NCBI GenBank assembly: GCA_048886185.1
Contig: JBHLKY010000006.1
Location: 1-32,000 of the forward strand
Direction: 5' to 3'
Length of the DNA: 32,000 nt
From: Candidatus Hermodarchaeota archaeon
Lineage (GTDB): Archaea; Asgardarchaeota; Heimdallarchaeia; Hodarchaeales; Hodarchaeaceae
The stretch's first letter is position 1. Each line of letters begins with the position of its first letter. The position numbers and the translations under genes are program-made. Below the pieces are notes generated by a model. That model was given only the letters and a program-made list of their open reading frames with translations, was not told where the DNA came from and made no database searches. Of this stretch, positions 9,109 through 31,660 are shown one piece after another.

Positions 9109-10041
9109 ATGAGTAGGAGCACGATGGCACAATTGTTTGCGCGTTTACCCATAAATTTGCGATATGTCTTAAGTGAACTATTAATTAGTGCTTATAACTT
9201 CGATGCTCGAATTCTAAAAGATTATATTGATGGGAAATTTGCCACAACGTTCAATTACTCAAATGAATCAATAGCCAAAATAAAGGCCCTCCATGATCGC
9301 CATAAAGGTGAAAGATGTTTTATTCTTGGCAATGGCCCGAGTTTAAATCGAACTAATCTTACTAATCTAAGAAATGAGGTTTCCATTGCCTCCAGTGGAA
9401 TCTTTCACATCTTTAAAGAAAATTCATATAGACCAACATACTATACAGTTGTAGATTTCATTTTTGCTCAACAATATGCTAGAATTATTGACAAGGTTAT
9501 CAAGAATGACAATATTACAGGGATTTTATTGAATTCCCTAAAAAAGTACATTCAAGGAGATCCTAGTACAATATGGGTGAATTTCTTACCAACATGGATA
9601 CATGGCCATTATTCTCAGTACACACAAGAAAACATGGAAACGAATCGAGAAAAGCCTCTACTACCTGAATTTAGCGAGAACCTTGTCCGTGGAATTCATG
9701 ATGCAGGGACAGTCACTTATGTTAATTTACAATTGGCCCTTTACATGGGTTTTAGTGATATCTATTTGATTGGTGTTGATCATAATTATAAAGTCAAAGA
9801 AACAATCGTTACAGAGAATCCAGACATCCTAATAAGTGATTATGAAGTTGATCCCAATCATTTTAGTCCTAATTACACCCCAAAGGGACATAAAATGGCT
9901 GTACCAAGAGTAACTATAATGGAATCAGCCTATTACAAAGCCCGCAAAGTTGCAGAATCGCGGGGTGTTAATATCTATGACGCAACAAAGGGGGGACAAT
10001 TAAAGGTCTACCGAAAAATAGATTATGATTCGTTATTCTGA
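9109..10041 (+). CDS. DUF115 / Maf / GT42-like protein, candidate nonulosonic-acid transferase
   Basis: 310 aa; RCFILGNGPSL and GTVTYVNLQLALYMGFSDIYLIGVDH are the two family motifs; overlaps the convergent neuA by 9 nt. Confidence 0.75.
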   Translation: MSRSTMAQLFARLPINLRYVLSELLISAYNFDARILKDYIDGKFATTFNYSNESIAKIKALHDRHKGERCFILGNGPSLNRTNLTNLRNEVSIASSGIFHIFKENSYRPTYYTVVDFIFAQQYARIIDKVIKNDNITGILLNSLKKYIQGDPSTIWVNFLPTWIHGHYSQYTQENMETNREKPLLPEFSENLVRGIHDAGTVTYVNLQLALYMGFSDIYLIGVDHNYKVKETIVTENPDILISDYEVDPNHFSPNYTPKGHKMAVPRVTIMESAYYKARKVAESRGVNIYDATKGGQLKVYRKIDYDSLF

Positions 10042-10752
10042 TTTTGATCTCTTTTTCATTAATTTTTCAGCTTCATTTAGCCTCTCTTGGGTATCAATAT
10101 CGATTTTATTTTCAGGAATATTATCCAAAATCAGAGGTAATATCCGATCCCCTGTCATTGATCCCATATTAAGGATAATACATGACCGAACTACATCTAT
10201 GTAGCCTGTTTGCCAATAAACGGGAACTAAAACTTGTCGGGGTTGATTATATGCTTCTTTAATTTTAGTTTTTATTATTGGCTCTAAATACCCTTCATTA
10301 CCGATTTTCCACATTTTGTAGGGGTTTTCATCAGGAGTGACTACAGCTCGAACACTATGAGCGTCAGAATTATCTAGTAGAAGTTTGATGGCTTTGTCAA
10401 CAATGGATGTTTCTCGTAGCGGGCTTGTCGGTCGCAGATGGACAACAATTTCGGGACAATATTCCTCCTTCTCTAATAACCACATCAAAGCGTGAGTAAA
10501 GACAGGTAAATCTGGAGTGAGATCTTGAGAAAATATGCTAGGTCGAATGAAGGGGACCTCTGCTCCGTAATTCTTACTAATTTCTGCAATCTCTTTATCA
10601 TCAGTTGAAACGATTATTCTATTGATCAATTTACTTTCTTGTGCAATTTTAATTGAATAATAGATTAGAGGCTTATTCGATAGGAGTGCTATATTTTTCC
10701 TAGGAAGTTTCTTTGAACCTCCTCGTGCAGGAATCAACGCTAAAATATCCAT
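10033..10752 (-). CDS. neuA: Acylneuraminate (CMP-nonulosonate) cytidylyltransferase, copy 1
   Basis: LIPARGGSKKLPRKN, VSTDD, RPTSPLR, IDIDT; ATG 10752 preferred over the track's TTG 10764. Confidence 0.9.
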   Translation of the reverse strand: MDILALIPARGGSKKLPRKNIALLSNKPLIYYSIKIAQESKLINRIIVSTDDKEIAEISKNYGAEVPFIRPSIFSQDLTPDLPVFTHALMWLLEKEEYCPEIVVHLRPTSPLRETSIVDKAIKLLLDNSDAHSVRAVVTPDENPYKMWKIGNEGYLEPIIKTKIKEAYNQPRQVLVPVYWQTGYIDVVRSCIILNMGSMTGDRILPLILDNIPENKIDIDTQERLNEAEKLMKKRSKSE

Positions 10753-10807
10753 TATAAATCCCAATCAGCTCTCGAGTTTATTGTATCATTGAAATATTTT
10801 GTTTTAA

Positions 10808-11647
10808 TTACCAACAGGTCCAACCACCGTCAACAATGAGATTTGCTCCAGTCATATAGGATGATGCGTTAGATAAGAGAAAAATAATGGCTCCTTGATA
10901 CTCGTTTCTTTCAGCCATTCTTCCCATTGGAACACGATAAGAATAATTCTTGACAAACGTCTCATCGTGACCATCAAAAACGCCACCTGGAGTTAATGTA
11001 TTGACTCGTATTTTATTTTTCGCCCAATATGTTGCTAGATAACGTGTAAAGTTTAAGACCGCACTTTTTGTTGTAGCATATCCAATAGGAGTATTGAAGG
11101 CTGTTTCTCCGTATTGACTTTTAATACCTTGATAGATGCGTTGATCAGGGGAGACAAGTCCATAAGTAGAAGCGATATTAACGATAGAACCTCCATCAGG
11201 ATTCTTTTTCATTTCTATTCCGATTTTTTGTGTTACAATAAACATCCCTGAAATATTAGTATCTATTGCTAATTTCCAAAGTTCTAATGGATAAGTCTCG
11301 AAAGGAGAAAAATATTCTTTTAATTCCTTACTTCCTTTGGCAATCGTTAATGCTGCGTTATTTATCAGCCCATTTATTCTACCAAATTTGTCTAGTGTTT
11401 GATCGACTAGGTTTTCTACGCTTCTTTCTGAGGTGATATCTACCTCGCATGCTAAACCTTCTTTACCTGTTTTATTTTCCAACTCTTTTAAGAATTGATC
11501 AGCTTTGTCTAATCGAATATCTGCAATGACTGGATTTCCCTTAGCTATGGATATGGCTTCTGCATATGATTTTCCCAAAAGCCCCATTCCCCCTGTAATA
11601 ATGATGACTTTATCTTTTAAGCTAAATAACTCTTCAATGGTATGCAT
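10808..11647 (-). CDS. Short-chain dehydrogenase/reductase, PtmA-like
   Basis: 279 aa; TGGMGLLG cofactor motif, NNAA, S-YxxxK (YATTK), RVNTLTPGG, DGGWT; co-oriented between a Gfo/Idh/MocA gene and neuA. Confidence 0.9.
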   Translation of the reverse strand: MHTIEELFSLKDKVIIITGGMGLLGKSYAEAISIAKGNPVIADIRLDKADQFLKELENKTGKEGLACEVDITSERSVENLVDQTLDKFGRINGLINNAALTIAKGSKELKEYFSPFETYPLELWKLAIDTNISGMFIVTQKIGIEMKKNPDGGSIVNIASTYGLVSPDQRIYQGIKSQYGETAFNTPIGYATTKSAVLNFTRYLATYWAKNKIRVNTLTPGGVFDGHDETFVKNYSYRVPMGRMAERNEYQGAIIFLLSNASSYMTGANLIVDGGWTCW

Positions 11648-11660
11648 TTTCCTTCCTTCA

Positions 11661-12626
11661 TTATTTAACAGTTTTTACCTTTAACACAACATTAAGTACT
11701 TCTATCCCATCTTCTATGGTAACCATGGGATTTTCATTGTTTTTAATGCAGCCGAGAAAATGATTAATTTCCTCGATAAACATATCATTTCTTTCAAAGT
11801 TTGTTGGAGTTTTGAAGACTTCTTCCTGCTTTGTTGAACGCTCATAAATCGTTAAAGAATTTTTGTAATAATCCCAAATTATCTTACCTTTCTCTGCAAT
11901 TATTTCAAGAGTTCTGTTAGGAGGTTCTTGTAGGTAATCAAGAAAAATTGATCCTATTATCCCGTTTTCATGTTTAAGGCTCATAATGGAGCACTCATCG
12001 GTAGTGGTATTCAGAACTTTTTTTTCGCTTAATAGGCCTTGTGATTCTTTGACACGACCAAAAAACCATATAACCATATCTATATCGTGACTTAAGGTTA
12101 GAAGGGTGCCTCCTCCTAAATCATCTCTTGCGCTATAGCCTTTTCTATAATCCTCCCATGGATGCCAGCTAGGAAGAAATTCTCCATAAATACTACGATA
12201 ACCTACGACTTCTCCAATTCTATTGTTTTTGAGAATACTTTTGATCTCTTTCAGAAGAGGATGGAATCGCATATTATAACCAACCATAGCAATAATGCCT
12301 TTTTCTTCTACAAGCCTTTGAAGGGTATTTAATCCCTCTAATGAGTTTGATATGGGTTTTTCAATAAATAAATGAGCTGTAGTTTTTTTAAGAACTTTTA
12401 ATGCCAATGGAATATGTAGACTTGTTGGATTGGTCAGAAATATGATGTCTGGTTTTTCATTGAGGGCTTCATCAAGATTAAAATACTCTTTCACGTTATT
12501 TTTTTCGCAGAATTCCTCTTTCTTTAGGCGCGATCTGAAAGCAATAAGATCATGATAACCGAGAAATTTTAAGTTTGTTATGTGTCTTTTTCCTATTGAT
12601 CCAAGTCCAATCATCAAAATTTTCAT
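11661..12626 (-). CDS. Gfo/Idh/MocA oxidoreductase, PtmF-like, copy 1
   Basis: 321 aa; IGLGSIGKRH, EKP, GYNMRFHP, LPSWHPWEDYR, SHDID. Confidence 0.9.
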   Translation of the reverse strand: MKILMIGLGSIGKRHITNLKFLGYHDLIAFRSRLKKEEFCEKNNVKEYFNLDEALNEKPDIIFLTNPTSLHIPLALKVLKKTTAHLFIEKPISNSLEGLNTLQRLVEEKGIIAMVGYNMRFHPLLKEIKSILKNNRIGEVVGYRSIYGEFLPSWHPWEDYRKGYSARDDLGGGTLLTLSHDIDMVIWFFGRVKESQGLLSEKKVLNTTTDECSIMSLKHENGIIGSIFLDYLQEPPNRTLEIIAEKGKIIWDYYKNSLTIYERSTKQEEVFKTPTNFERNDMFIEEINHFLGCIKNNENPMVTIEDGIEVLNVVLKVKTVK

Positions 12627-12932
12627 TCATACACGCTCTAATTAGCTTTTTATCATCCTTTGAGAGTATTATGTCTAGAGATTTGTTAGTTCGATTGCAG
12701 TGTTTTAATCTTGAATCATCCTTTAATATTTCTGGCTATTTTTATTAATACTTTAAAAATGAAATTAATCTTTTGCGTCCTGATTGATTCAACTCCCTCT
12801 TCCATTCTAATTTCCTAAATACGAATAATATAATAAATGATAAGAAAAATACAGCATAATTTATTTACCAAAGGGCTAGACTTTGACTACTGTCTGACGA
12901 AAAGTAATTTTAATTGATGGGTTAAAATCGAA

Positions 12933-13820
12933 GTGCAAGAAATGAAGGAAATAATTATTGGAGATAAACAAATTTCAGAAGAATCACCAGTTTTTTTCAT
13001 CGCAGAAATTGGCATAAACCATAATGGTGAATTAGATCTCGCCAAAAAAATGATTGACATGGCAGTCTATTGTAATGCAGATGCAGTTAAATTTCAAAAA
13101 AGAACGTTAGATCTTTGTATCCCTCCTGAAATGAGAAATCGAATAAAGGAAACACCTTGGGGAGAAATGACCTACTATGAATATAAAGAAAGATTAGAAT
13201 TTGGTGAATCAGAATATAGAGAGATTGATCAATATTGTCAAGAGAAAAAGATTTTATGGTCGGCTTCTGCTTGGGATATACCTAGTTTGACTTTCTTAGA
13301 AAAGATGGGAGTTCCTTATCACAAGATTCCTTCTGCGCAATTAACAAACAGGGAGCTTCTTCTTTCTGCTAAAGAAACTAATAAACCAATATTTTTATCC
13401 ACTGGAATGAGTACTGAAGAAGAAATTAAAAGGGCAATAGAGATCCTAAAGGATACCCCTTTAATAATAATGCACAGTAATTCTGCATATCCTTCGGTGA
13501 ACGGTGATTTAAACCTTTCATATATCCCTAAACTGAAAGAATTATATCCCGAACATATTGTTGGCTATAGTGGGCATGAAGAGGGAATTTCAGCAAGTCT
13601 TGTCGCAGCAACTCTAGGAGCTAAAGTAATCGAAAGACATGTAACAATCAACCGTGCAATGTGGGGTACAGATCAAGCAGCATCAATAGAATTTAGTGGG
13701 CTTCGAAGAATAGTTCGTGATTTGAAGAAGCTTCCAATTTGGCTAGGAAATGGGAAGAAAGTGGTAACACCCTCAGAACTTCCAGTGAAGAAAAGATTAA
13801 GAAATGTTGAAACCCTTTAA
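12933..13820 (+). CDS. neuB: NeuB-family synthase lacking the C-terminal SAF/AFP domain; NANS / KDN-9-phosphate-synthase-like
   Basis: 295 aa; IAEIGINHNG, KFQKR, LSTGMS, GYSGHEEG, IERHVT; ends right after the TIM barrel; start GTG 12933 or ATG 12942. Confidence 0.88.
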   Translation: MQEMKEIIIGDKQISEESPVFFIAEIGINHNGELDLAKKMIDMAVYCNADAVKFQKRTLDLCIPPEMRNRIKETPWGEMTYYEYKERLEFGESEYREIDQYCQEKKILWSASAWDIPSLTFLEKMGVPYHKIPSAQLTNRELLLSAKETNKPIFLSTGMSTEEEIKRAIEILKDTPLIIMHSNSAYPSVNGDLNLSYIPKLKELYPEHIVGYSGHEEGISASLVAATLGAKVIERHVTINRAMWGTDQAASIEFSGLRRIVRDLKKLPIWLGNGKKVVTPSELPVKKRLRNVETL

Positions 13821-13970
13821 AAAATCCTAGAATCACTATTGTCTCTTTGTAAATGTTGCTGTAAAGTTTTGAACTCCACCCTTAATCAAATAATACTAAA
13901 AGCTATCTAATTCAAAGTTTGAAAAGTCATTCTCAAATGATAGAAAATTGCTGAATTTTGACATATACTC

Positions 13971-14498
13971 ATGCAAGGAGATGATGTAGTGAATAACATC
14001 AAGGTGAAGAATATCAAAGCCCTTAAGCAAATTAAAAAAGTGAAAATGGCAATCTTTGATATTGATGGGGTTTTTACTGATGGTAGTGTCTACATTGACT
14101 CAAACGGGAGAGAAATGGTTAAATTTTCACGAATAGATGGAAAAGGAATTGAGCTGTTAATAGAAGCAGGGATTCATGTTGGGATAATTTCATCGGAAGC
14201 TAGCGATGCAGTTAAGTACAGAATGAATAAACTAAACATTTCAGAGGTACATCTGGGTATTAGGAACAAATTAGAGAGTTATAATAGTATAAAAGAGAAA
14301 TTTCAGCTTTCAGATCATGAGATATGCTATTGTGGGGATGATATCCAAGATATCCAAATCTTAACAAGATGTGGATTCTCCTGTTGCCCAAAAAATGCTC
14401 AAAATGAAGTGAAGGATATTTGCGATTATATTTCAGAATATGAAGGAGGAAGCGGATTTGTTAGGGATATATGTAACATTTTATTAAATGCTACATAA
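13971..14498 (+). CDS. KdsC-family (C0 HAD) phosphatase, candidate nonulosonate-9-phosphate phosphatase
   Basis: 175 aa; FDIDGVFTDG (DxD), SRIDGKGI, ISS, CGDDIQD, GGSGFVRD. Confidence 0.88.
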   Translation: MQGDDVVNNIKVKNIKALKQIKKVKMAIFDIDGVFTDGSVYIDSNGREMVKFSRIDGKGIELLIEAGIHVGIISSEASDAVKYRMNKLNISEVHLGIRNKLESYNSIKEKFQLSDHEICYCGDDIQDIQILTRCGFSCCPKNAQNEVKDICDYISEYEGGSGFVRDICNILLNAT

Positions 14499-14523
14499 GT
14501 AATTTATCTTATGTCTCACTGAA

Positions 14524-14557
14524 TATACAAAAGTAAGCAAATTTTGGCTTTTGTATA
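14524..14557. terminator. 10-bp perfect inverted repeat (possible terminator hairpin or operator)
   Basis: TATACAAAAG (14524-14533) and CTTTTGTATA (14548-14557), 14-nt spacer, 25 nt after the phosphatase stop. Confidence 0.35.
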
Positions 14558-14656
14558 ATAGAAAGCACATTGAAAATGGATTCTTCTTAATATTGAAGCT
14601 GATTATCTTTTTTATCTCTAAATGACTTAATTAATCTTAAATTTTATTGCACAAAA

Positions 14657-16033
14657 TTGATGAAAATGACCATCAATGTTGCTGTAATTGGTATGGGGTA
14701 TGTTGGGGTCCCCATTGCTGCCTTACTTGCCGATACTGGTGTCTTTAAAGTTACAGGTATACAAAGACGTTCAAAACGGTCAGGATGGAAGATTGATTAT
14801 CTTAATCAAGGCAAATGCCCCATAAAGAATGAACCTGAACTCCCAGAATTAATTTCCAGAGTCGTTAAGGAGAAAAAGTCTTTTTCAGTCACAGATGACA
14901 TTTCTATTGTAAGAAGCATGGATTATATACTAATCGACGTTCAAACACCAACTGATGAACAAAATATCCCCCAATATGTGTCTTTAAAGGAAGTTAGTAA
15001 TCAGGTAGGTCAAAATCTATCAAAAGGAACAACGGTCATCATTGAATCAACTTGTGCTCCAGGGACGACCGATTTCATTGTAAAACCCATCATTGAAGAA
15101 GCTTCATCATTCAAATGTGAAAAAGATTTTTTTCTGGCCTTTGCTTATGAAAGGGTCATGGTTGGCAGGTTGATTTACAATATTTTAAATTATCCCCGAA
15201 TAGTAGGTGGTGTCGGGTCTGAAAGCTCAAAGAAAGCAAGTTGGTTATATAAACATGTTTTGAAAAATGAGGTTGTAGAAACCACAGCACTTACAGCGGA
15301 GCTTGCAAAAGTAGTGGAAAATACTTATCGTGATGTTAATGTTGCCTTTGCAAATGAAGTAGCTTTAATTTGTGAATCGCTAGGAGCAGATGTTTATGAA
15401 GTACGGGATCTTGTAAATAATCTCCCTTTCATCGAGGGAAGGGGAAACCCTCATCGTAATATGCACATACCAGGAGCAGGAGTGGGAGGCCACTGTCTTC
15501 CAAAAGATCCTTGGTTATTAAAATATGGTGTAATGAAACATGGAAAAAAACCAGTTCAGCTTAATGTAATTGAAGCAAGTCGTCTTCGGAATTTTTTCAT
15601 GCCAAAACATGTAGTTGCTCTTCTAAAGGAATGTGAAGCTGAAACTAATCGGTATCATTCTAAAGATCAGAAAATCGCAATTTTAGGGGTCGCTTTTATT
15701 GAAAACTCTGATGATCCTCGGAATACTCCCACACGATATCTAGTAAATATTCTTGAAAAAGAGAATTATACATATGCTGTCCACGATCCCCTTGTGCGCC
15801 AAGATGAGGTAGATTTCCCTTTTTCAACGAATTTGGAGGAAGTTATCCGTGATTCGGATGCATTAATTATTGTAACAGCCCATCAAGAGTATAAAAACTT
15901 AAATCTAACTCATACTAAATCCTTGATGAAAAAAGAACCAATATTAATTGATGGAAGAACAACATTTAATCCTGAAGAAATTATCAACTTAGGTTTTTGT
16001 TATCGAGGAGTGGGCCGTGGTCAATATCGCTGA
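14657..16033 (+). CDS. Nucleotide-sugar dehydrogenase (UDP-ManNAc / UDP-GlcNAc 6-dehydrogenase family, WecC/WbpA-like)
   Basis: 458 aa; GMGYVG, IESTCAPGTT, KVVENTYRDVNVAFANE, catalytic GVGGHCLPKDP, DDPRNTP. Confidence 0.9.
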   Translation: MMKMTINVAVIGMGYVGVPIAALLADTGVFKVTGIQRRSKRSGWKIDYLNQGKCPIKNEPELPELISRVVKEKKSFSVTDDISIVRSMDYILIDVQTPTDEQNIPQYVSLKEVSNQVGQNLSKGTTVIIESTCAPGTTDFIVKPIIEEASSFKCEKDFFLAFAYERVMVGRLIYNILNYPRIVGGVGSESSKKASWLYKHVLKNEVVETTALTAELAKVVENTYRDVNVAFANEVALICESLGADVYEVRDLVNNLPFIEGRGNPHRNMHIPGAGVGGHCLPKDPWLLKYGVMKHGKKPVQLNVIEASRLRNFFMPKHVVALLKECEAETNRYHSKDQKIAILGVAFIENSDDPRNTPTRYLVNILEKENYTYAVHDPLVRQDEVDFPFSTNLEEVIRDSDALIIVTAHQEYKNLNLTHTKSLMKKEPILIDGRTTFNPEEIINLGFCYRGVGRGQYR

Positions 16034-16113
16034 CTGATCACTTTTTTCTCCTCGTTCTATTTATAGAAGAGATTTAAAGGAATAAAACAGTTAAAACTGG
16101 AGATTAAAGGCAA

Positions 16114-18063: not shown

Positions 18064-18133
18064 ACAAACATTGAGAAAGAAACGAATAAATAGTATTTAG
18101 GAAAGCTCAGATAAATGTAGAATTAAATTAATC

Positions 18134-21521: not shown

Positions 21522-21814
21522 TGACCTTAAATTATTCTTTTAAGTCTGAAATAAACTACCTCTTAAGTTAATTTATGGAGATAAAAAGAAATAATAACAA
21601 GGAAAAGAAGGCGTGAAAAGAATTCAAGGCGTGTTAATAACTCTGATGTAATATAATGCTTTTATATTTAATAAGAGAATTGAATTTCTTCATTATGACA
21701 AAAGAATGCTTTTTTTCTATAAATCATAATATCAACCCAAATTATAAGAATATATACTTAAAGGGATACAAAATGGAGAGAGATTAATAAAATACAGGAA
21801 TTGATGTCTATTAA

Positions 21815-23305: not shown

Positions 23306-23423
23306 AAATTATTCTCTATAAAGAGAAATAACATAAAGAGCTAAGATTAATTTGTAATAATTAAAACGAGATAAGAAAATTGCTTTAATATTTATTATAT
23401 ATACACCCATAAAGGGAGATTTT

Positions 23424-24470: not shown

Positions 24471-24517
24471 TTTCTGAGCTCATTGTTGAAAGATTATAAT
24501 TAGAGTAAGGATTTCAA

Positions 24518-25687
24518 ATGCCAAAGAGAAAAGTATGTGTAATTACAGGAACTAGAGCCGAATATGGTTTATTAAAACCAGTAATGAATAAGATTATATC
24601 ATCCAAAAGCTTAACATTACAAATTATTGCTACAGGAATGCATTTATTACCTGAATTTGGATCGACTGTTGAAGAAATAAAAAATGATGGTTTTAAAATT
24701 GATGCAAGAGTTCCTATTGTTGTTGGAGGGGATGATAAATTGTCAATGAGTATGTCAATAGGTCTTGGTATCATTGCCATTTCTCAAAGTTTAGAAACGT
24801 TAAATCCAGATCTTGTTGTTGTTTTAGGTGATAGATTTGAAATATTCGCTGCTTCGATAGCTGCAGTCTATAGTGGAAGAGTATTAGCCCATCTCTGTGG
24901 AGGAGACAGCCCTGAAGGAGGTTATGATGAATATACTCGACATTCGATAACAAAAATTGCTCATTTACACTTTCCTATGACTGAGAAAAGTGCTAATAGG
25001 ATAATTAAAATGGGGGAGAATCCTAAGAATGTACATGTTGTTGGGTACACTTCTCTAGATACGATTCTAAATAAAGAGCTCCCCAACAAAATAGAACTCT
25101 CTAAAAAATATAACTTGACTCTAGATAAGCCACTTGTTCTAGTTACGCATCATCCTATTAGCACTATTCCCAATGAGGTTCAATTTGAAGTTCAATCCAT
25201 TTTAGATGTAATTGTCGAACTACAATTGAATTGTCTGATAAGTTTCCCCAATGTTGACCCAGGAGGAAAACGCATATTGAATGTTATCAAGAAATTTGCA
25301 GAGTCTTATCCTTCTCTCATTCAGGTTTATAATACTATACCTTATGAAGATTATTTAGGACTCATGAAGATTGCTGATGTGATGGTTGGGAATTCAAGTA
25401 GTGGTATTCTAGAGGCACCAGCTTTTAATTTACCATTTATAAATGTTGGTAAACGACAACAAGGGAGAGAGAGAGCTAATAATGTTATTGACGTTGAGGC
25501 TACCAGAGAAGATGTAAAAAAAGGAATTGAAAAAGCATTATATGATGCAAAATTCCTAGATGAAATAAGGAAAGGAATGAATCCTTTTGGAGATGGAAGG
25601 GCAAGTGAACGCATTGTCAACATTCTTGAAAAGGTGAAAATAGACAAAGAGCTGATTAAAAAAAGATTTTTTGAAGAAACATCCTAG
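24518..25687 (+). CDS. neuC: Hydrolysing UDP-GlcNAc(-derivative) 2-epimerase (NeuC/LegG-like)
   Basis: 389 aa; TGTRAEYGLL, TGMHL, LGDRFE, GNSSSGILEAP, GKRQQGRE, FGDGRAS. Confidence 0.93.
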   Translation: MPKRKVCVITGTRAEYGLLKPVMNKIISSKSLTLQIIATGMHLLPEFGSTVEEIKNDGFKIDARVPIVVGGDDKLSMSMSIGLGIIAISQSLETLNPDLVVVLGDRFEIFAASIAAVYSGRVLAHLCGGDSPEGGYDEYTRHSITKIAHLHFPMTEKSANRIIKMGENPKNVHVVGYTSLDTILNKELPNKIELSKKYNLTLDKPLVLVTHHPISTIPNEVQFEVQSILDVIVELQLNCLISFPNVDPGGKRILNVIKKFAESYPSLIQVYNTIPYEDYLGLMKIADVMVGNSSSGILEAPAFNLPFINVGKRQQGRERANNVIDVEATREDVKKGIEKALYDAKFLDEIRKGMNPFGDGRASERIVNILEKVKIDKELIKKRFFEETS

Positions 25688-25702
25688 AAAGGACGTTAGG
25701 CG

Positions 25703-26140
25703 ATGAATGAAAAACGATTCAAAGAATGGAAGTTGCCAAAAATTCAACATGGAAAGCTAACACAATGGAATTGGTTAGTTCAATATCCAGAAAATCTTAC
25801 AATTGGTAAATTTTCGGATATCGGTGCATTTACTTATATAAATGCTAAATATGGTGTAGAAATTGGTGAGTTTGTACAAATAGGGTCACATTGTTCAATA
25901 TATTCTGAATCAACTATTGATGGTAAACAAGGTAAAGTTACATTTGAGAGGAATGCCCGTTTGGGTAGTCATTCTCTTGTTATGCCAGGAATAAGAATAA
26001 AAGAAAATTCTATCATTGGAGCACATAGTTTTGTAAATACAAACATTCCAAGTGGAGTTGTAGCTTTTGGTATTCCAATTCAAATTAGAAGAAACTTAAC
26101 CACAGAAGAAATTCAAGAACAATATAATAAGATGCAGTGA
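25703..26140 (+). CDS. Hexapeptide-repeat (left-handed beta-helix) acyltransferase
   Basis: 145 aa with repeated [IV]Gxxxx hexads (IGKFSD IGAFTY, IGEFVQ IGSHCS, IGAHSFV) and terminal FGIP. Confidence 0.88.
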   Translation: MNEKRFKEWKLPKIQHGKLTQWNWLVQYPENLTIGKFSDIGAFTYINAKYGVEIGEFVQIGSHCSIYSESTIDGKQGKVTFERNARLGSHSLVMPGIRIKENSIIGAHSFVNTNIPSGVVAFGIPIQIRRNLTTEEIQEQYNKMQ

Positions 26141-26220
26141 TCATCAATTTAATACTATTAAAAGACTACATCCAATCCTCTAACTACTTGTTTAATATTT
26201 AAATTTGAATAATAGAATAT

Positions 26221-27354
26221 ATGGTTACTAAAATGAACATTCCTTTATTTAAAATATATTTTGATGAAAAAGATCTCAAATCTGTAAACAAAATCATTCA
26301 ATCAGGCATGTATTGGGCTATAGGACCTGAAATTAATAAGTTTGAAGAAGAAATTAATAGATATATAGGAAAAAAATATTGCGTATTATTTAACTCTGGT
26401 ACTTCAGCATTACATGCAATCCTACAAGCTTATAATGTTAAAAATCAAGATGAGGTTATTGTACCTTCATTTACTTTTATTGCAACTGCAAATGCCCCTT
26501 TATTTGTTAGGGCAAAACCAATTTTTGCTGATATTGAACCAACCACATTAGGACTGGATCCTGAAAGTGTATTGGAGAAAATTACTTCAAAGACAAAAGC
26601 ACTTATACCAGTTCATTACGGAGGGTGTCCAGCTGACATTAAAAATCTTAAAGAAATTGCACAAGACCATAAATTACTTTTAATCGAAGATGCTGCTGAA
26701 TCTTTTGGATCAAAACTAGAAGATCAAATGATTGGAACATTTGGAGACAGTAGTATGCTTAGTTTTTGTCAGAATAAGATAATTACTACTGGAGAGGGAG
26801 GAGCAATAATAACAGATTCGAAAGATATCTTCGAAAAACTCCTTTTATTCCGCTCTCATGGACGATTAGAGGATAAGAATTATTTTACTTCTCCTATTTC
26901 TGGTGATTATGTCAGTTTGGGTTATAATTTAAGAATGTCAAATATTAATGCTTCTTTAGGATTATCACAATTAGATAAAGTAGAAGAAATTATTTCAATG
27001 AGAATAAAAAGAGCTAAATACTATATTAACCAATTGAAAAGAATTAGCGAAATAACTCTTCCTTATATCCCACAAAATGCAAGGCATGTATTCCAGTTAT
27101 TTTCTATTCAGGTAAAGCATCATCAAAGAAGTGATTTAATCAAATTTCTAACATCAAAAGGAATTATGTCTAAGGTTTATTTTTCACCGATTCACTTAAC
27201 GTATTTTTACAAGGAAGTATTAAAGTACAAAGTTAGCTTACCAGTAACAGAATCTATTTCAAAAGAGACACTTAGCTTACCAATTTACCCTGCAATGAAT
27301 GAAAAAGAATTAGAATATGTATCTAGTGCAATGATGGATTTTTTTAACTCATGA
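26221..27354 (+). CDS. DegT/DnrJ/EryC1/StrS sugar aminotransferase
   Basis: 377 aa; NSGTSALH, SFTFIATAN, EDAAES, PLP lysine SFCQNKIITTGEGG, GYNLRM; start may be ATG 26233. Confidence 0.93.
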   Translation: MVTKMNIPLFKIYFDEKDLKSVNKIIQSGMYWAIGPEINKFEEEINRYIGKKYCVLFNSGTSALHAILQAYNVKNQDEVIVPSFTFIATANAPLFVRAKPIFADIEPTTLGLDPESVLEKITSKTKALIPVHYGGCPADIKNLKEIAQDHKLLLIEDAAESFGSKLEDQMIGTFGDSSMLSFCQNKIITTGEGGAIITDSKDIFEKLLLFRSHGRLEDKNYFTSPISGDYVSLGYNLRMSNINASLGLSQLDKVEEIISMRIKRAKYYINQLKRISEITLPYIPQNARHVFQLFSIQVKHHQRSDLIKFLTSKGIMSKVYFSPIHLTYFYKEVLKYKVSLPVTESISKETLSLPIYPAMNEKELEYVSSAMMDFFNS

Positions 27355-27371
27355 ATTAATGGTGAATTGTA

Positions 27372-28445
27372 ATGAAAACTGATTTTTTTGAAAACAAAGT
27401 TATATTAGTCACTGGAGGAGCAGGTTCAATTGGTAGTGAACTTGTAAAACAGCTTCTAAAACTCAATGTGAAAGTAGTTCGAGTAATTGATACTGATGAG
27501 ACAGAACTATTTTTCATGGAACATTCACTAGATTCTGATCGATTACGAGTTTTTATTGGCGATATAAGAGATAGTGAAAGAATGAATTTAGCAATGGAAA
27601 ATGTAGATATAGTATTCCATGCAGCTGCTTTAAAGCATGTACCTTTATGTGAAAAAAATCCATTTGAAGCTGTTAAAACTAATATTATAGGTACCCAAAA
27701 TTTAATTCAAATTGCTCGATCTAATAAAGTTAAAAAGTTTATTACGATTAGTACTGACAAAGCTATTAATCCAACTAATGTCATGGGGGCGACCAAACTC
27801 CTTGCTGAAAGATTAACCATTGCAGCATATCATTACACAGATTATAGAGATACTTCTTTTTCTTCAGTAAGATTTGGTAATGTTCTAGGGTCTCGAGGAT
27901 CTGTTATTCAGGTTTTTATAGATCAAATTCAAAAAGGAGGGCCAATAACAGTTACAGACCTCAATATGACTCGCTTTATCATGAAGATTGACCACGCTGT
28001 TCAATTAGTTTTGAGAGTAGCAACACTTGCAAAAGGAGGGGAAATTTTTATCCTAGAAATGCCAGCAGTAAATCTAAAAGATTTAACGGAAGTCTTAATT
28101 GAATTAACAGCTCCTTTATATGGTTATGTTCCTAATGACATAAAAATTAAGATCATAGGTAATAGAATTGGCGAAAAAGAACATGAGGAACTCCTAAGTG
28201 AATATGAAACAATCAATTCCTACTTATTGAAGTATGAAAATCTATATATACTCACTCCCAAGGATCCATCTTATCATCCAGATGTTTTGTTGTCCTATTA
28301 TAAACAGATGGGGGCATCTATAAAGGATATTAAGCAGATCCAAATCAAATCTTCCTCTGAAGCAGATTTACTTTCTAAATCACAAATTAAGTCTTTATTA
28401 AAGGAATTTATTTCCGATTTAACTTCAAAAAAATTCATAATATAG
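27372..28445 (+). CDS. UDP-GlcNAc 4,6-dehydratase family (PglF/CapD catalytic-domain-like, no TM domain)
   Basis: 357 aa; TGGAGSIG, HAAALKHVP, STDKA, MGATK, VRFGNVLGSRGSV, GEKEHEEL; GGTGA SD. Confidence 0.9.
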   Translation: MKTDFFENKVILVTGGAGSIGSELVKQLLKLNVKVVRVIDTDETELFFMEHSLDSDRLRVFIGDIRDSERMNLAMENVDIVFHAAALKHVPLCEKNPFEAVKTNIIGTQNLIQIARSNKVKKFITISTDKAINPTNVMGATKLLAERLTIAAYHYTDYRDTSFSSVRFGNVLGSRGSVIQVFIDQIQKGGPITVTDLNMTRFIMKIDHAVQLVLRVATLAKGGEIFILEMPAVNLKDLTEVLIELTAPLYGYVPNDIKIKIIGNRIGEKEHEELLSEYETINSYLLKYENLYILTPKDPSYHPDVLLSYYKQMGASIKDIKQIQIKSSSEADLLSKSQIKSLLKEFISDLTSKKFII

Positions 28446-28507
28446 TTTTATTTTCTTTAACATTCAAGTGTAGTATTATCTTTAGAGGAAGAAGGATAAT
28501 TTTTTAG

Positions 28508-29323
28508 CTAGTAAAAATTCTGTTGATTATCTGTTTTAGTGATCAAGCGATTATAAAGTCTAATGTATTTTTCAACGGGTGTTTGTTCGGTTTCAGTGAT
28601 TATTTCTCCAGTATCGACTAAAACTTTACACCCACTAGCAATGGCTTCCAAACCAGCTTTACTTAATACTTCTCTAGAGGTAAGCCCTTTTAGGTCAAGT
28701 ACATACTCAAAAGAAGATAAAAACTCTGGAAATTCATTAAATGGAATGACTTTTAGTGGTTGGTCGGCCATGCGGTTTAAAATTGTTAATTCAAGATTAT
28801 TTTCTTTCGCAAAATTTTTAGCTTCTTCTGTTTTATCGACTGGAGGCGTCCTTATGAACAATGCTGTCCCTTTCCTTTTATTACCATGATCTTTAAAACT
28901 TGGTGAAATTGGACGACCATAATATTCTACTCCCTCACGAAGCAAATCCTTTGTACTTACAAGAATTTTTGTGGCTAATCTTTTCACGTATATTGGTATT
29001 TCTCTACCTCGGATTTCTGTCCCATGGTATTGAAATACAATGGGAACCCGTGGAGAAAATAATTTCGCAAGAATTAATCCCTTAGTCCAAGCACGAACAT
29101 GAATTAAATCTGGTTTAAAGCTTAGAATATGTTTGATAATGATAAAGGAGTATTTTATAACACCACAATCTGGTACAAAATTAAAATCATAATTTTGGCA
29201 AATGTACATATTATCATACTTTGCTCTATGTATTACATACGACTTTCCATACCCATTTCTATTAATATACTCAGAAATGATAGAACCATTACCAGCTATT
29301 TCACAAATGTTTAATATCTTCAT
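28508..29323 (-). CDS. Compact GT4-like glycosyltransferase
   Basis: 271 aa; PDLIHV, YHGTEIR and an EX7E motif (EVLSKAGLE) followed by AIASG. Confidence 0.7.
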   Translation of the reverse strand: MKILNICEIAGNGSIISEYINRNGYGKSYVIHRAKYDNMYICQNYDFNFVPDCGVIKYSFIIIKHILSFKPDLIHVRAWTKGLILAKLFSPRVPIVFQYHGTEIRGREIPIYVKRLATKILVSTKDLLREGVEYYGRPISPSFKDHGNKRKGTALFIRTPPVDKTEEAKNFAKENNLELTILNRMADQPLKVIPFNEFPEFLSSFEYVLDLKGLTSREVLSKAGLEAIASGCKVLVDTGEIITETEQTPVEKYIRLYNRLITKTDNQQNFY

Positions 29324-29415
29324 TCATTAATCACTTATTGTCAACTAAATTGGAGTGGTTTCTTAGCAGATAGCCTTTTGGTATCTAACTTGTGATCAAT
29401 TCTTGATTTTAGAAA

Positions 29416-30018
29416 TCAATCTTTAACAACTAATTTTATTAATTCAAAAGCCTCTGCAAATTCTGCACGAATTTGAGTTCCACGAGTCTGAACAATACTC
29501 CATTGGAAATTTTCCTGAAAATAATTTCTATTTTTTTGAGATCTATAACACATGAGAGCCTTTATCTTTTGCTCAATGTTTTCTTTCGATAATTGGACAA
29601 AACAATTGGCTTGGAAAATGATATTATTCCAAGGAAGTTCATAACCCCAGATTGTGGAGTCTTTAAAGGCACGAATAGCCTCATTACAAATGACTTGATG
29701 GTCTTGATGGAGATCACGAGTAGAAGGGATAAATACAAGATCAATGTCTTCAGAAATGCTAAGGTTGTACAAGAAATCTAAGATTTCTTGACGTTTTAGG
29801 AAAAAATTACGTCGGGGGAAGTCAAGAATTTCTATTTTTTCTATACCGAGAATTTTTGTACTTTCTTTGACTTCTATAATTAATTGTTCATTTTCACACC
29901 ATGAAAAAACAATAAAATGAATATTATTACCCATTTTCAGGAATTTATCCAATGTACCCCCGCAACCAAGCTCCGCATCATCTGTATGGGGACTAAGTAC
30001 AAGAATATTTTCAAACAT
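29416..30018 (-). CDS. PIG-L/LmbE family N-deacetylase
   Basis: 200 aa; SPHTDDAELGCGG and HQDH metal-binding motifs, KIKALMCYRSQ, AEAF. Confidence 0.9.
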   Translation of the reverse strand: MFENILVLSPHTDDAELGCGGTLDKFLKMGNNIHFIVFSWCENEQLIIEVKESTKILGIEKIEILDFPRRNFFLKRQEILDFLYNLSISEDIDLVFIPSTRDLHQDHQVICNEAIRAFKDSTIWGYELPWNNIIFQANCFVQLSKENIEQKIKALMCYRSQKNRNYFQENFQWSIVQTRGTQIRAEFAEAFELIKLVVKD

Positions 30019-30547
30019 GAGTTAACACCACTTTGTTGTATGTAATTGAAGTGAGTTAGAGTAGAATTACCATTTGAAACCACATTTTGAAATATTTTTC
30101 ATACTTGTGGCTCGTGTAGTGGTCTATTCTTAATGTATTTATTGTTAGTACAGGAGATTTTCACCTTGAAAAAAGAAATCCTAGTTCAAATTGAATATAG
30201 AATCTTTTGGGAGTCTTTTTCTGCTTCTGAATGAATCGAAAAATAGTAAAAAGTATCTGTTGAACCTCAATAATGAACTTGTGCTTTTGTAGTTCGATAT
30301 TCTTGTAGAAGTTGTATTTTGGTAGTAAATTATAGGTGTAAAACTATTCTGAATGTTGTTTCTAAAAATTGACGATGATAATTTACTCTCGCAGTTCAAT
30401 ACTGTGGAAATGTGTTCAAATTAATTTCAGAGAAGACACAAACTCAAAGTCTATGAAATAATTAATCTATAACAATGTATTTGAGGGAATTCATGACCCT
30501 TTCTGGTCAAGTATGGTAAATAAAGCAACTTCTAATATAAGAAGGAA

Positions 30548-31660
30548 TTAAAGCTCTTTTACAGTAGGAACAGTAGGAATTGCCTTGTTTAACTCTCTTA
30601 ATATTCGATCTGAGGCTTTTCCGTCACCATAGATCGAAGGTTTGGCAATAATTTTCTTCTTGATCATTACTTCAATCGCTTGTGCTATCAATATTGGATT
30701 ATTCCCTACAATTTCATTAGCTCCTTCTTCAACGGTTTCCAACCATTCTGTCTTGTTCCTTAATGTTATACAGGGAACTTCTAACAGGTATGCCTCTTTT
30801 TGTAACCCCCCAGAATCAGTTAACACTAATTTGCTATTCGCAACTAAATTTAAAAAAATATGATATGATTGGGGGTCTATCAATTTGATATTCGGTGGAA
30901 TTTTAATGTTTGTTTTTTCTATAATCTTTTTAGTGTGTGGATGAATGGGAAATATGGAAGAAATCCCAGTTTTTCCAATTGAAAGGAATATTTTATTAAG
31001 CTTCTCTGAGTCAGCCAAGGTTTCACGTCTGTGAAGAGTCATAATTAAATAGTTTTTCTCCTCAATTCTTAAATTATCAGCTGTAGACTCAAATAATTTC
31101 TTATCAATTATCCTCTTTTTTTCTGAAATTAATAATTCTTGCATTGTATCACCAGTAAAGATAATTGCGCCGAGGGCTGATTCTTTTTCTAAATTCTGAA
31201 TAGCTGTTTTAGTTGGAGCGAATAGAAGGGCCGATCCATGATCGATTAATCGACGGTTAATTTCTTCTTGCATCCTTAAATCAAAACTTCTTAGTCCTGC
31301 TTCGATATGACATACAGGAATTTTCAGGAACATACCCGTAAGGGCTCCCGCTAATGCTGAATTGGTGTCCCCTGGAATTAGCAATCCATCAAATTCTCCC
31401 TTCTTGAGAATGGGAGTAAGTTTCTCGATAATTTTACAAATGTGATAGTCCGTGGATCCTGACCGTACATCTAATTCATGATCAGGAGAATCCATTAACA
31501 GATTTCTAAAAAATAAATCGGATAGATAAGAGTCATAATGCTGCCCAGTGAAGATATGGACAATTTCAATCTCAGTTAGCGATTTTACATTCCTAAGAAT
31601 AGGTACAGATTTAATAATTTGGGGTCTAGTCCCTGTAACAAGTGCGTACTTTTTTACCAT
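30548..31660 (-). CDS. wecB: Non-hydrolysing UDP-N-acetylglucosamine 2-epimerase (WecB/WbpI-like)
   Basis: GTRPQIIK, TGQHYD, GDTNS, HIEAGLRS, EEINR, TDSGGLQKEA, YGDGKAS; start ATG 31660 (or 31669). Confidence 0.92.
   Translation of the reverse strand: MVKKYALVTGTRPQIIKSVPILRNVKSLTEIEIVHIFTGQHYDSYLSDLFFRNLLMDSPDHELDVRSGSTDYHICKIIEKLTPILKKGEFDGLLIPGDTNSALAGALTGMFLKIPVCHIEAGLRSFDLRMQEEINRRLIDHGSALLFAPTKTAIQNLEKESALGAIIFTGDTMQELLISEKKRIIDKKLFESTADNLRIEEKNYLIMTLHRRETLADSEKLNKIFLSIGKTGISSIFPIHPHTKKIIEKTNIKIPPNIKLIDPQSYHIFLNLVANSKLVLTDSGGLQKEAYLLEVPCITLRNKTEWLETVEEGANEIVGNNPILIAQAIEVMIKKKIIAKPSIYGDGKASDRILRELNKAIPTVPTVKEL

Follow-up and report, generated by a model that had tools for sequence, protein, structure and literature searches.

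The sugar island at positions 9109-31669 of a 32,000-nucleotide stretch of DNA (the window) from a sediment Asgard archaeon (Hodarchaeales) raises the question of whether a single archaeal locus makes two different nonulosonic acids, and whether such a system is new. At the genomic level, the two-pathway reading of the first-pass annotation is borne out: the locus divides into two separable modules, A and B, which stand alone in some congeners and together in others, and each module brings a CMP-transferase of its own as well as a candidate transferase that co-varies with it. All genes of the earlier list were found at the coordinates given as unbroken ORFs whose family matches exceed curated cut-offs; scores below a cut-off are marked as such. 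The two NeuA-type CMP-transferases, the two candidate transferases of different families and the single flippase listed earlier were all found. Two NeuB synthases were also present, but these are 36% identical and thus distant paralogues from different subfamilies, not unrelated proteins, and the two Gfo/Idh/MocA oxidoreductases (29% identical to each other) are PtmF-like at the family level only. The locus is probably a surface-glycan island with two independent ulosonic-acid modules that follow the routes proposed below.

Module A (9109-14498) is a constant component of its site on the chromosome in some members of the genus. NeuB-1 (12933-13820, + strand) is a NeuB-family synthase that lacks the SAF domain (PF03102, 237 bits; its database entry, of 292 aa, begins 3 codons downstream), with the SAF-less structure 6NCS as top PDB match and orthologues of 71-81% identity in four congeners. 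Residues E25, K53, Q55, H215, E234 and H236 are invariant in its subfamily, and its score against the NeuB equivalog model is below cut-off (234 against 399.65). The position of N. meningitidis E134 is Gln in NeuB-1 and variable across the subfamily, so NeuB-1 may use a substrate unlike those of the enzymes studied to date. The candidate ulosonate-9-phosphate phosphatase (13971-14498, + strand) is a KdsC-type C0 HAD protein (TIGR01670, 138 bits, cut-off 107) with DxDGV and GDxxxD motifs. The CMP-ulosonate synthetase, cytidylyltransferase A (10033-10764, - strand; CTP_transf_3, PF02348, 81.7 bits), retains the PARGGSK..KN, PTSPLR and DID motifs in comparison with 6IFD, and its orthologues (77-79% identical) adjoin NeuB-1 in the closed congener G010 and in G017.

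The sequences support a Kdn-type phospho-sugar route for this core trio, in which NeuB-1 would condense a hexose 6-phosphate, mannose-6-P being the likeliest, with PEP, the HAD protein would remove the 9-phosphate, and cytidylyltransferase A would form the CMP-sugar; sugar A is predicted, in chain length and identity, to be Kdn or redox-modified Kdn. Among NeuB-1 homologues in 80 named genomes, a HAD gene lies within 6 kb in 66, a CMP-transferase gene in 67 and both in 58, and HAD-NeuB (P0039) and CTP_transf_3-HAD fusions occur. This NeuB-HAD linkage, together with the fusions, supports the earlier proposal of a phosphorylated route for one sugar. The known CMP-Kdn pathways of Bacteroides thetaiotaomicron (Kdn-9-P synthase BT1714, phosphatase BT1713 and CMP-Kdn synthetase) and Prymnesium parvum (PMC6200933) set the precedent, and module A, as known from its genes, resembles them in combining a NeuB-family synthase, a KdsC-type C0 HAD phosphatase and a cytidylyltransferase, with amino-sugar enzymes absent. 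The likeness to BT1714/BT1713 is one of family and gene linkage; the module A phosphatase falls below the NCBIfam Kdn-9-P phosphatase cut-off (132 bits against 180), and module A also differs in its additional Gfo/Idh/MocA and SDR pair, its Maf-fold transferase and its Asgard host.

The leading alternative, itself unlikely, is that sugar A is not nine-carbon: NeuB-1 would act on a pentose or heptose phosphate to give an octulosonic acid resembling Kdo, or an acid of some other length, the KdsC-type enzyme would dephosphorylate it and the WaaZ (Kdo III)-like protein would transfer it, and the locus would make one nonulosonic and one other ulosonic acid. In its favour, the phosphatase scores slightly higher against KdsC models (138 and 135 bits) than against the Kdn-9-P phosphatase model, its best structural matches are KdsC structures, the module A transferase and its orthologues match Pfam WaaZ_KDO_III, and the unconserved E134 equivalent makes sugar specificity unpredictable. 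However, the Kdo-8-P synthases characterised so far belong to the KdsA/DAHP-type family, not to NeuB. The characterised phospho-route NeuBs, moreover, all yield nine-carbon products (PMC6200933), and close members of the subfamily in Streptomyces occur in loci of CMP-transferase, HAD and NeuB only, in a group whose walls contain Kdn (PMC11481543).

Two further genes accompany the core trio, an SDR that is PtmA-like at the family level (10808-11647, - strand; adh_short_C2, 141 bits; YxxxK) and Gfo/Idh/MocA oxidoreductase A (11661-12626, - strand; PF01408, PF22725 and PF02894; GxGxxG and EKP motifs). In G010, G014 and G017 the SDR stays with module A, and orthologues of oxidoreductase A there are 71-74% identical. 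The pair is predicted to oxidise and reduce CMP-sugar A, probably epimerising it. A comparable arrangement is found in the ela, aci and epa modules of Acinetobacter baumannii for 8-epi-legionaminic, acinetaminic and 8-epi-pseudaminic acids, where the ela and aci sets replace lgaG, EpaA/EpaB make 8-epi-Pse, and a cytidylyltransferase has beside it one or more oxidoreductases and an SDR, which convert a finished nonulosonic acid into an isomer (PMC9676051, PMC12053666). Module A resembles these in gene types, whereas its set accompanies a Kdn-type phospho-route synthase. It is rather improbable that the pair instead acts upstream of the synthase in a PtmF/PtmA-like manner, altering the hexose phosphate so that sugar A would be an amino (neuraminic-type) sugar and not Kdn. 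PtmF and PtmA have been placed in the opening, precursor-supplying part of the Campylobacter legionaminic pathway and a ptmA-legF-ptmF type trio is conserved in Leg clusters (PMC4481668), and the SDR weakly matches the PtmA model (132 bits, cut-off 350). Against early action, no acetyltransferase, amidotransferase or aminotransferase is present in module A of G010, of G017 or of the Caldiserica cassette, which holds the same set of five genes; late action has the Acinetobacter precedent; and most lineages have the core trio with neither Gfo nor SDR, just 9 of the 80 loci including all four partners, a pattern consistent with tailoring as an optional, late-acting step.

Transfer of sugar A is assigned to a Maf/DUF115 (MptE-like, WaaZ_KDO_III-like) candidate CMP-ulosonate transferase of 310 aa (9109-10041, + strand; PF01973, 53.7 bits, cut-off 34.6). 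Its AF2 model (pLDDT 87) has the fold of the Maf flagellin transferases (5MU5, Z 14.7) and of GT42 CstII/Cst-I (Z 11-12), although it corresponds to the central domain only, lacking the N- and C-terminal Maf domains, and it also resembles archaeal MptE/HPPK (MjHPPK, Z 10.9). The gene adjoins the CMP-ulosonate synthetase, its homologues among relatives occur only in the NeuB-1-bearing G010 and G019, and distant homologues are located in glycan loci.

Module B (16114-28445), some 12.5 kb long, occupies a variable segment that separates a conserved UDP-sugar dehydrogenase from WecB. It encodes a UDP-GlcNAc 4,6-dehydratase (27372-28445, + strand; Polysacc_synt_2, PseB/PglF-like; PF02719, 350 bits; TGxxGxxG and TDK motifs), a DegT-family aminotransferase (26221-27354, + strand; PglE/LegC/PseC-like; PF01041, 376 bits; PseC 307 and LegC 272 bits, both below cut-off), a short hexapeptide-repeat N-acetyltransferase of 145 aa (25703-26140, + strand; NeuD/PglD-like; Hexapep 44.5 bits; TIGR03570, 55 bits, below cut-off; 67% orthologue in G016), a hydrolysing UDP-sugar 2-epimerase (24518-25687, + strand; NeuC/LegG-type; TIGR03568, 427.6 bits, cut-off 235.9) and NeuB-2 (23424-24470, + strand), a SAF-bearing synthase that is LegI-type by context (PF03102, 329 bits; TIGR03569, 460 bits, cut-off 399.65). 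The nearest homologues of NeuB-2 reach at most 64% identity, some being annotated by JGI as N,N'-diacetyllegionaminate synthase. CMP-NulO synthetase, or cytidylyltransferase B (19795-20526, + strand; CTP_transf_3, PF02348, 100 bits), retains PARGGSK..KN and PTSPLR, with EVD in place of DID. This full set supports the legionaminic-like second route suggested earlier, and its sequences support the prediction of a complete UDP-route pathway in which UDP-GlcNAc would pass through dehydratase, aminotransferase, acetyltransferase, 2-epimerase and NeuB-2 in that order to a legionaminic-type 5,7-diamino sugar, then activated by cytidylyltransferase B. The 4,6-dehydratase may be inverting or retaining, which bears on the stereochemistry of sugar B. 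The same enzymes make up the pathways of Legionella (NeuABC with PglFED-type steps), Acinetobacter (lgaA-G), B. subtilis (sps; PMC7439481) and Halorubrum sp. PV6 (PMC6137143), and B. subtilis SpsE (1VLI) is the best solved relative and top PDB match of NeuB-2. Module B differs in gene order, in the short form of its acetyltransferase, in an identity of at most 64% to any named homologue, and in two extra genes that may further modify sugar B, namely oxidoreductase B (20523-21521, + strand; PF22725 and PF01408; GxGxxG), whose start runs 4 nt into the end of the cytidylyltransferase B gene, and a class III (HemL-like) aminotransferase (18134-19441, - strand; PF00202, 130 bits). Orthologues of the latter occur only in G005, G008 and G012, all holders of a SAF-type NeuB, and in G008 and G005 they are separated from the NeuB gene by 3-8 kb.

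The candidate transferase for sugar B is a 649-aa TagB/BFO_1060-type protein (16114-18063, + strand; C-terminal Glyphos_transf, 36.5 bits) with a GT-B fold model (pLDDT 88.6). Among its 43 aligned relatives, 43 match TIGR04396 and 42 BFO_1060, all below cut-off, and in the family HP motif H518 is invariant and P519 nearly so. A SAF-type NeuB is present in 9 of the 10 relatives with a homologue, on the same contig in six of these. The protein shares the TagB-like GT-B fold, HP motif and Pse/Leg pathway linkage with the Tannerella forsythia Pse/Leg-derivative transferases (Tanf_01245, TFUB4_00887, BFO_1060), a genetically validated family with ManNAcA as acceptor (PMC5420450), but its profile match is weak (42 bits, cut-off 200), it has an extra N-terminal region of about 200 residues and its host is archaeal. 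The ManNAcA acceptor is matched by nearby UDP-ManNAcA-forming genes, WecB (30548-31669, - strand; non-hydrolysing UDP-GlcNAc 2-epimerase; TIGR00236, 280.6 bits, cut-off 210; 83% orthologue in G010) and a UDP-ManNAc dehydrogenase-like nucleotide-sugar 6-dehydrogenase (14657-16033, + strand; TIGR03026, 347 bits; archaeal UDP-ManNAc dehydrogenase model 307 bits, below cut-off 750; 76-87% orthologue in G010). With expression presumed, these conserved flanking genes would probably supply ManNAcA as acceptor sugar, and the Wzx-type flippase (21815-23305, + strand; PF01943, 50 bits) would flip the lipid-linked glycan. Both transferases are candidates named from fold, weak profile matches and co-occurrence.

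The gene order of G010 is MetE-MetK-Maf-CMPa-SDR-GFOa-NeuB1-HAD-dehydrogenase followed by PIG-L and WecB, with module B absent; the G017 contig bears module A by itself, G016 lacks module A but has orthologues of module B (57-67%), and G014 and a 77-kb Logan contig carry module A with another Leg-type module. The chromosomal position of module A is the same in relatives, and the module is found again in bacteria; two-pathway loci recur among relatives. It is very unlikely that only one pathway functions here, with module B a recent or decaying cassette or module A a silent relic, and a single nonulosonic acid displayed: module B is missing from G010 and its segment is variable, AT-rich (GC 0.29-0.34 against 0.35) and next to a truncated GT4, but the 17 pathway ORFs of the two modules are all unbroken and keep their catalytic motifs, orthologues of module A in several species lack stops and share 71-87% identity, the A-plus-B architecture recurs as above, and read depth is even over both modules in four runs.

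The suggestion of an undescribed archaeal sialylation system was overstated, since both module kinds are widespread, bacteria and other archaea being known to have them, and archaeal legionaminic-acid glycosylation has been published (PMC6137143). A strong NeuB match was observed in about 60 of the 251 genomes sampled from the source phylum, and a literature search found no published account of Asgard nonulosonic acids.

The Asgard-like host proposed earlier was confirmed by marker genes, with a eukaryote-like actin (442 bits) and r-protein S8e in the genome and F420 genes (Cof) on the locus contig, and NCBI names the orthologues of locus genes as Heimdallarchaeota/Hodarchaeales. The gene linkage is real and no assembly artefact, as each module junction is bridged by contigs from separate assemblies of four sediment runs (11000-21564, 14611-21846, 18987-30900 and 21579-30900; all from one study, two possibly the source of the MAG). 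An origin as a bacterial contaminant or through a chimeric join is scarcely credible despite an estimated bin contamination of about 5% and bacteria among the best named relatives of single genes, given these bridging contigs, the GC and tetranucleotide signature that the 233-kb contig shares with the rest of the genome, the archaeal/eukaryotic PriS/PriL primase subunits about 15 kb downstream, and the MetE-MetK-module A-WecB synteny with a closed 4.94-Mb Heimdallarchaeota genome.

Between module B and WecB lie a GT4 glycosyltransferase consisting of the N-terminal domain only (28508-29323, - strand; 271 aa; Glyco_transf_4, 27.5 bits, below cut-off) and a PIG-L family de-N-acetylase (29416-30018, - strand; PF02585, 51 bits), which is only 40% identical to its G010 counterpart against about 80% for the flanks. 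The 62 nt between the GT4 and the stop of the next gene leave no space for a C-terminal domain, and the GT4 is probably a remnant at the cassette edge. A GT2 glycosyltransferase found by ORF and Pfam matches (31863-32000, - strand) is cut by the window end, beyond which the contig encodes a GT4, an LPG_synthase_TM protein and a ManC-like gene. The AglB gene is located on a different contig.

All genes named in the first-pass annotation (two NeuB synthases, two NeuA cytidylyltransferases, two PtmF-like oxidoreductases, two candidate transferases and one flippase) were recovered in the ORF listing and by profile searches. In module A (9109-14498), the genes encoding oxidoreductase Gfo A, an SDR protein and the CTP_transf_3 cytidylyltransferase A form a tight operon on the minus strand (10033-12626), and the gene of a PF01973 (MptE/Maf-like) protein (9109-10041) overlaps the end of the cytidylyltransferase A gene tail to tail. 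The genes encoding NeuB-1 (295 aa, no SAF domain) and a KdsC-type HAD phosphatase (175 aa) are divergent from this operon (12933-14498). Module B (16114-28445) encodes, in order, a 649-aa protein, a class III aminotransferase, cytidylyltransferase B, oxidoreductase Gfo B (its gene overlapping that of cytidylyltransferase B by 4 nt), Wzx, the SAF-bearing NeuB-2, a NeuC-type hydrolysing 2-epimerase, a short hexapeptide acetyltransferase, a DegT aminotransferase and a Polysacc_synt_2 4,6-dehydratase, and is followed by a truncated GT4 gene, a PIG-L deacetylase gene and WecB.

The two NeuB proteins, which had been called unrelated, are 36% identical to each other and thus distant paralogues; cytidylyltransferases A and B share 48% identity across their N-terminal halves, and the Gfo/Idh/MocA oxidoreductases A and B share 29%. 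The N-terminal and PTSPLR signatures and the C-terminal acidic motif are kept in both cytidylyltransferases, and the HAD, Gfo, SDR and dehydratase genes likewise have their motifs. The only gene that looks truncated is that of the GT4 (28508-29323, minus strand, 271 aa), which has the N-terminal domain and no space for a C-terminal domain, and which is probably a scar that recombination left at the border of the variable cassette.

The window proteins were compared with relatives by tblastn. In the closed genome of a congener (G010), the order MetE-MetE-MetK-Maf-cytidylyltransferase A-SDR-Gfo A-NeuB-1-HAD-dehydrogenase was observed with 66-87% identity. Directly after the dehydrogenase (14657-16033, plus strand, in the window), G010 has PIG-L (40%), about 3.4 kb of other genes (ATP-grasp and GT4, standing where the window has module B) and WecB (83%; 30548-31669, minus strand, in the window), and the whole 16114-29323 segment is absent at this site. 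This comparison indicates that the dehydrogenase and WecB are the conserved flanks of a variable segment, an arrangement like that of bacterial O-antigen and capsule loci. Since PIG-L (29416-30018 versus L024:392-1045 in G010) is only 40% identical to its counterpart whereas the flanking genes are about 80% identical, it is part of the variable segment.

In other relatives, module A stands by itself on its contig (G017), is missing where module B orthologues (57-67%) occur with a GT649-like gene, a relative of that of the 649-aa protein, and Wzx (G016), or is accompanied by a different Leg/Pse-type set (G014). On a 77-kb metagenome contig (the Logan contig) with an 85% identical NeuB-1, the backbone is unchanged, and after it comes a legionaminic-type module in rearranged form, which encodes a cytidylyltransferase, a Wzx, a GT4 and a Glyphos_transf protein of its own. 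Among the 40 relatives, four congeners have a NeuB-1 orthologue (71-81%) and fourteen genomes have a SAF-type NeuB. The proposal that the locus holds two pathways is thus borne out at the genomic level, the modules being separable across relatives and each having its own enzymes. Upstream, at 4684-8957, an HTH-CBS regulator gene is divergent from the two genes of a split MetE and from that of a MetK of bacterial/eukaryotic type (PF00438, PF02772, PF02773). In G010 and the Logan contig, this block likewise stands directly upstream of module A. Just past WecB, G010 has an ORF of 1741 aa without a Pfam match (L024:7770-12995), which may be a giant surface protein beside the glycan locus.

Both synthases exceed the PF03102 cut-off of 22.1 bits (NeuB-1, 237 bits; NeuB-2, 329 bits), and the metal and PEP ligands (N. 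meningitidis E25, K53, Q55, H215, E234 and H236) are invariant in alignment A1, which includes both. NeuB-2 has a SAF domain (50.8 bits); NeuB-1 ends at residue 295 without one, like 6NCS, its best solved relative, and the 'environmental' clade (PMC8208679), and is therefore placed in the SAF-less subfamily. This subfamily is very large (about 292 aa, SAF-less) and, at 58-70% identity, is common to Hodarchaeota, Thermoplasmatota, DPANN archaea, Caldiserica, Actinomycetota and Bacteroidales. The residue corresponding to E134 of N. meningitidis, at a position which a survey suggested to be tied to the use of phosphorylated substrates (PMC8208679), is Gln in NeuB-1 and varies across the whole subfamily.

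The HAD phosphatase passed the cut-off of the KdsC subfamily model TIGR01670 (138 bits, cut-off 107) and remained below that of the Kdn-9-P phosphatase model NF058599 (132.4 bits, cut-off 180). NeuB-1, the KdsC-type HAD and the cytidylyltransferase are adjacent in the window, G010, G014, G017, G019 (a further relative) and the Logan contig, and the HAD adjoins the NeuB-1 gene in each of the five relatives for which surrounding DNA is available. Fusions were also found, namely an N-terminal HAD-NeuB fusion (P0039) and, beside the synthase in Thermoplasmatales and Bacteroidales, CTP_transf_3-HAD fusions. Five genes of module A recur on a Caldiserica contig, as HAD-NeuB-cytidylyltransferase-Gfo-SDR. 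The CTP_transf_3-HAD fusions are about 385 aa long, lie next to short NeuBs (L030 and L031, Bacteroidales; L032, Thermoplasmatales) and have the domain order of animal CMP-sialic acid synthetase; in the Bacteroidales loci a B12-radical SAM enzyme and a methyltransferase are encoded between the fusion and the short NeuB.

Linkage was surveyed in 80 named species genomes with a member of the NeuB-1 subfamily (47-54% identity), counting neighbours within 6 kb. A HAD was found in 66/80, a cytidylyltransferase in 67/80 and both in 58/80; SDR genes were present in 34 and Gfo genes in 12, while nine genomes had all four and five had a Maf-like gene. The Streptomyces loci consist of cytidylyltransferase-HAD-NeuB only, and Kdn-teichulosonic acid has been reported in streptomycete walls (PMC11481543). 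The phospho-route to Kdn has been characterised in B. thetaiotaomicron (genes BT1714/BT1713) and P. parvum (PMC6200933). On the basis of the HAD and cytidylyltransferase linkage, the Streptomyces trio with Kdn in the wall, and the B. thetaiotaomicron and P. parvum precedent, the core trio of module A is read as a predicted Kdn-type phospho-route. The reading that the short NeuB and the phosphatase supply a thiamine-dependent enzyme for sugar branching was rejected for this locus, which has a cytidylyltransferase but no gene of a TPP enzyme within it or next to it. An ATP sulfurylase gene (17-1162) lies 8 kb upstream of the locus, and 14 of the 80 named genomes (L042-L121) have a homologue of it no more than 6 kb from a NeuB-1-family gene, which may be a hint of sulfated glycans.

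The grouping of cytidylyltransferase, oxidoreductase and SDR (10033-12626) is kept in G010, G017 and Caldiserica, and in the Ela/Aci/Epa-type modules a cytidylyltransferase is likewise grouped with an oxidoreductase and an SDR, the likeness being one of gene grouping. In Acinetobacter, the ela/aci sets stand in for the plain cytidylyltransferase lgaG, and 8-epi-pseudaminic acid is made by EpaA/EpaB (PMC9676051, PMC12053666). By analogy, Gfo A and the SDR are read as an optional late tailoring pair, which would act on the Kdn-type sugar. That the pair instead supplies the precursor, as PtmF/PtmA do (PMC4481668), remains a rival to late tailoring.

For module B, the NeuC/LegG-type 2-epimerase (TIGR03568, 427.6 bits; equivalog cut-off 235.9) and NeuB-2 (TIGR03569, 460.4 bits; equivalog cut-off 399.65) both exceeded their models' thresholds. 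The co-directional genes at 25703-28445 encode the 4,6-dehydratase (PF02719, 350 bits), the aminotransferase (PF01041, 376 bits) and the acetyltransferase (Hexapep, 44.5 bits), and this dehydratase/C4 aminotransferase/N-acetyltransferase set recurs in G016 and the Logan contig. The dehydratase scored 296 bits against the PseB model and 84 bits against the LegB model, each below cut-off. By these profile matches, the enzymes of module B are a predicted UDP-route legionaminic pathway set. A PseG-type hydrolase and a GNAT acetyltransferase mark the pseudaminic series; because a NeuC and a hexapeptide acetyltransferase are encoded instead, the gene content points to a sugar of the legionaminic rather than the pseudaminic series. 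The best solved relative of NeuB-2 is SpsE, which belongs to the B. subtilis legionaminic pathway (PMC7439481). The closest homologues of NeuB-2 show no more than 64% identity; JGI annotates some of them as legionaminate synthase, and those with names are from ANME-1 archaea. Orthologues of the class III aminotransferase were found in three congeners only, all with a SAF-type NeuB and in two of them 3-8 kb from NeuB, indicating that this enzyme is an accessory of SAF-NeuB modules; more speculatively, it could convert a hydroxyl to an amine together with Gfo B.

A PDB sequence search returned no match for either candidate transferase, and their folds were predicted instead. The Maf-like protein (PF01973, 53.7 bits; cut-off 34.6) gave a model with pLDDT 87, whose best match was the catalytic domain of the Maf flagellin glycosyltransferase (5MU5 residues 240-510; Z 14.7, rmsd 4.0 Å, 205 residues aligned), followed by GT42 sialyltransferases (Z 11-12) and M. 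jannaschii HPPK (MjHPPK, Z 10.9), with a sharp fall below Z 8. The protein was found in only 2 of 40 relatives (G010 and G019), both holders of NeuB-1, and the 35 searched relatives that lack a NeuB-1-type gene all lack it too, a distribution that argues against a housekeeping role as MptE, the archaeal 6-hydroxymethylpterin diphosphokinase. That assignment is disfavoured, given this patchy occurrence, the position of the 40%-identical homologues in bacterial glycan loci and the MjHPPK fold match ranking below that of Maf.

The 649-aa protein has a Glyphos_transf/BFO_1060/TIGR04396 region at its C-terminal end, and its model (pLDDT 88.6) adopts a GT-B fold for which Foldseek returned generic GT-B neighbours (WecB-like epimerases, MshA and TagF) that do not discriminate function. 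It scored 41.8 bits against NCBIfam BFO_1060_trans, below the cut-off of 200; among its aligned relatives, TIGR04396 was matched by 43/43 and BFO_1060 by 42/43 (best E 2e-36), below cut-off. On these scores, the protein is treated as a distant relative of the BFO_1060 family and not as a member. Its HP motif is conserved, with H518 invariant and P519 nearly so. Of the ten relatives with a homologue, nine also have a SAF-type NeuB, on the same contig in six. BFO_1060-family proteins of Tannerella are genetically validated transferases of Pse/Leg derivatives, adding the sugar onto ManNAcA (PMC5420450), and WecB and the UDP-ManNAc-dehydrogenase-like gene, which flank the variable segment, would produce UDP-ManNAcA. 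The only STT3 (AglB) match in the genome is on contig C3, not on the contig of the locus.

The archaeal (Asgard-like) origin proposed for the DNA was upheld. The contig, whose first 32 kb are the window, is 233 kb long and belongs to a genome of 4.84 Mb in 75 contigs (96% complete, 5% contamination). This genome has genes for a eukaryote-like actin (442 bits) and for r-protein S8e, and about 15 kb downstream of the locus lie F420 genes together with those of PriS and PriL, the archaeal/eukaryotic primase subunits. GC and tetranucleotide usage of the contig fit the genome, with the locus, slightly AT-rich, at about the 90th percentile of distance. An Rfam search with archaeal and bacterial models found no SSU rRNA in the genome, so the taxonomy is based on protein markers and on the NCBI names of orthologues, which are Candidatus Hodarchaeota, Hodarchaeales and Heimdallarchaeota. 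The same contig carries a tRNA-Ala(GGC) whose 30-nt intron lies at a non-canonical position (ARAGORN; G000:C6:222826-222930).

Depth was even over the locus in four separately assembled sediment-metagenome runs of one study, and contigs from these runs span 11000-21564, 14611-21846, 18987-30900 and 21579-30900, so that the two halves of the locus are physically linked. Among the runs listed for the locus there was no RNA run. At two intergenic spacers (14507-14640 and 21545-21923), the assemblies of all four runs split into several short alternative contigs differing in few letters, which indicates strain micro-heterogeneity. A variant without most of module B, which one contig joint of run X3 (16557>27641) would suggest, was discounted, as the joint has only 21 matching letters on one side.

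Nonulosonic acids cap surface glycans and control recognition by viruses, partners and hosts, and Hodarchaeales have been proposed among the closest archaeal relatives of eukaryotes. A special evolutionary tie to the eukaryotic sialic acid pathway found no support, since the nearest relatives of NeuB-1 are prokaryotic and a protein-atlas look-up gave only bacterial (Actinomycetota) short-NeuB clusters. A literature search found no paper linking Asgard archaea to nonulosonic acid biosynthesis; N-glycan masses of Prometheoarchaeum syntrophicum have been published. Few measured archaeal cases have been reported, among them legionaminic acid on the S-layer N-glycan of Halorubrum and pseudaminic acid in Methanobrevibacter, and of the 122 archaeal genomes surveyed in 2013, <20% had pathway genes (PMC6137143). 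To call the locus an undescribed system was an overstatement: it holds a further predicted legionaminic pathway and, in module A, a predicted variant of the Kdn-type route with putative redox tailoring.

The joint reading, rather unlikely when taken as a whole, is that the Hodarchaeales surface bears two undescribed sialic-acid-like sugars, namely a Kdn with redox tailoring (an epimerised or keto form), which an animal-style phospho-sugar route would make and a sialyltransferase-fold enzyme would transfer, and a legionaminic derivative further aminated by Gfo/Idh/MocA and the class III aminotransferase, with the second module a cassette swapped between species, probably under virus pressure, and some form shared by about a quarter of the sampled genomes of the phylum. 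The locus itself shows that this Hodarchaeales genus keeps the predicted phospho-route module and exchanges a second cassette, of legionaminic type, at a fixed site. Glycoproteomics of Asgard enrichments gains concrete masses and marker ions to seek, and the six-gene set (synthase, phosphatase, CMP-transferase, Gfo, SDR and Maf-like transferase) offers a compact way to define the product of a very widespread uncharacterised cassette. Strong NeuB matches (E <= 1e-40) occur in about 60 of the 251 genomes that were sampled from the window's phylum, and several of these genomes have 3-5 copies. On one contig of another genome of this phylum, five NeuB-family matches, one with an in-frame TAG, lie within about 57 kb (G171:C10:510644-567870).
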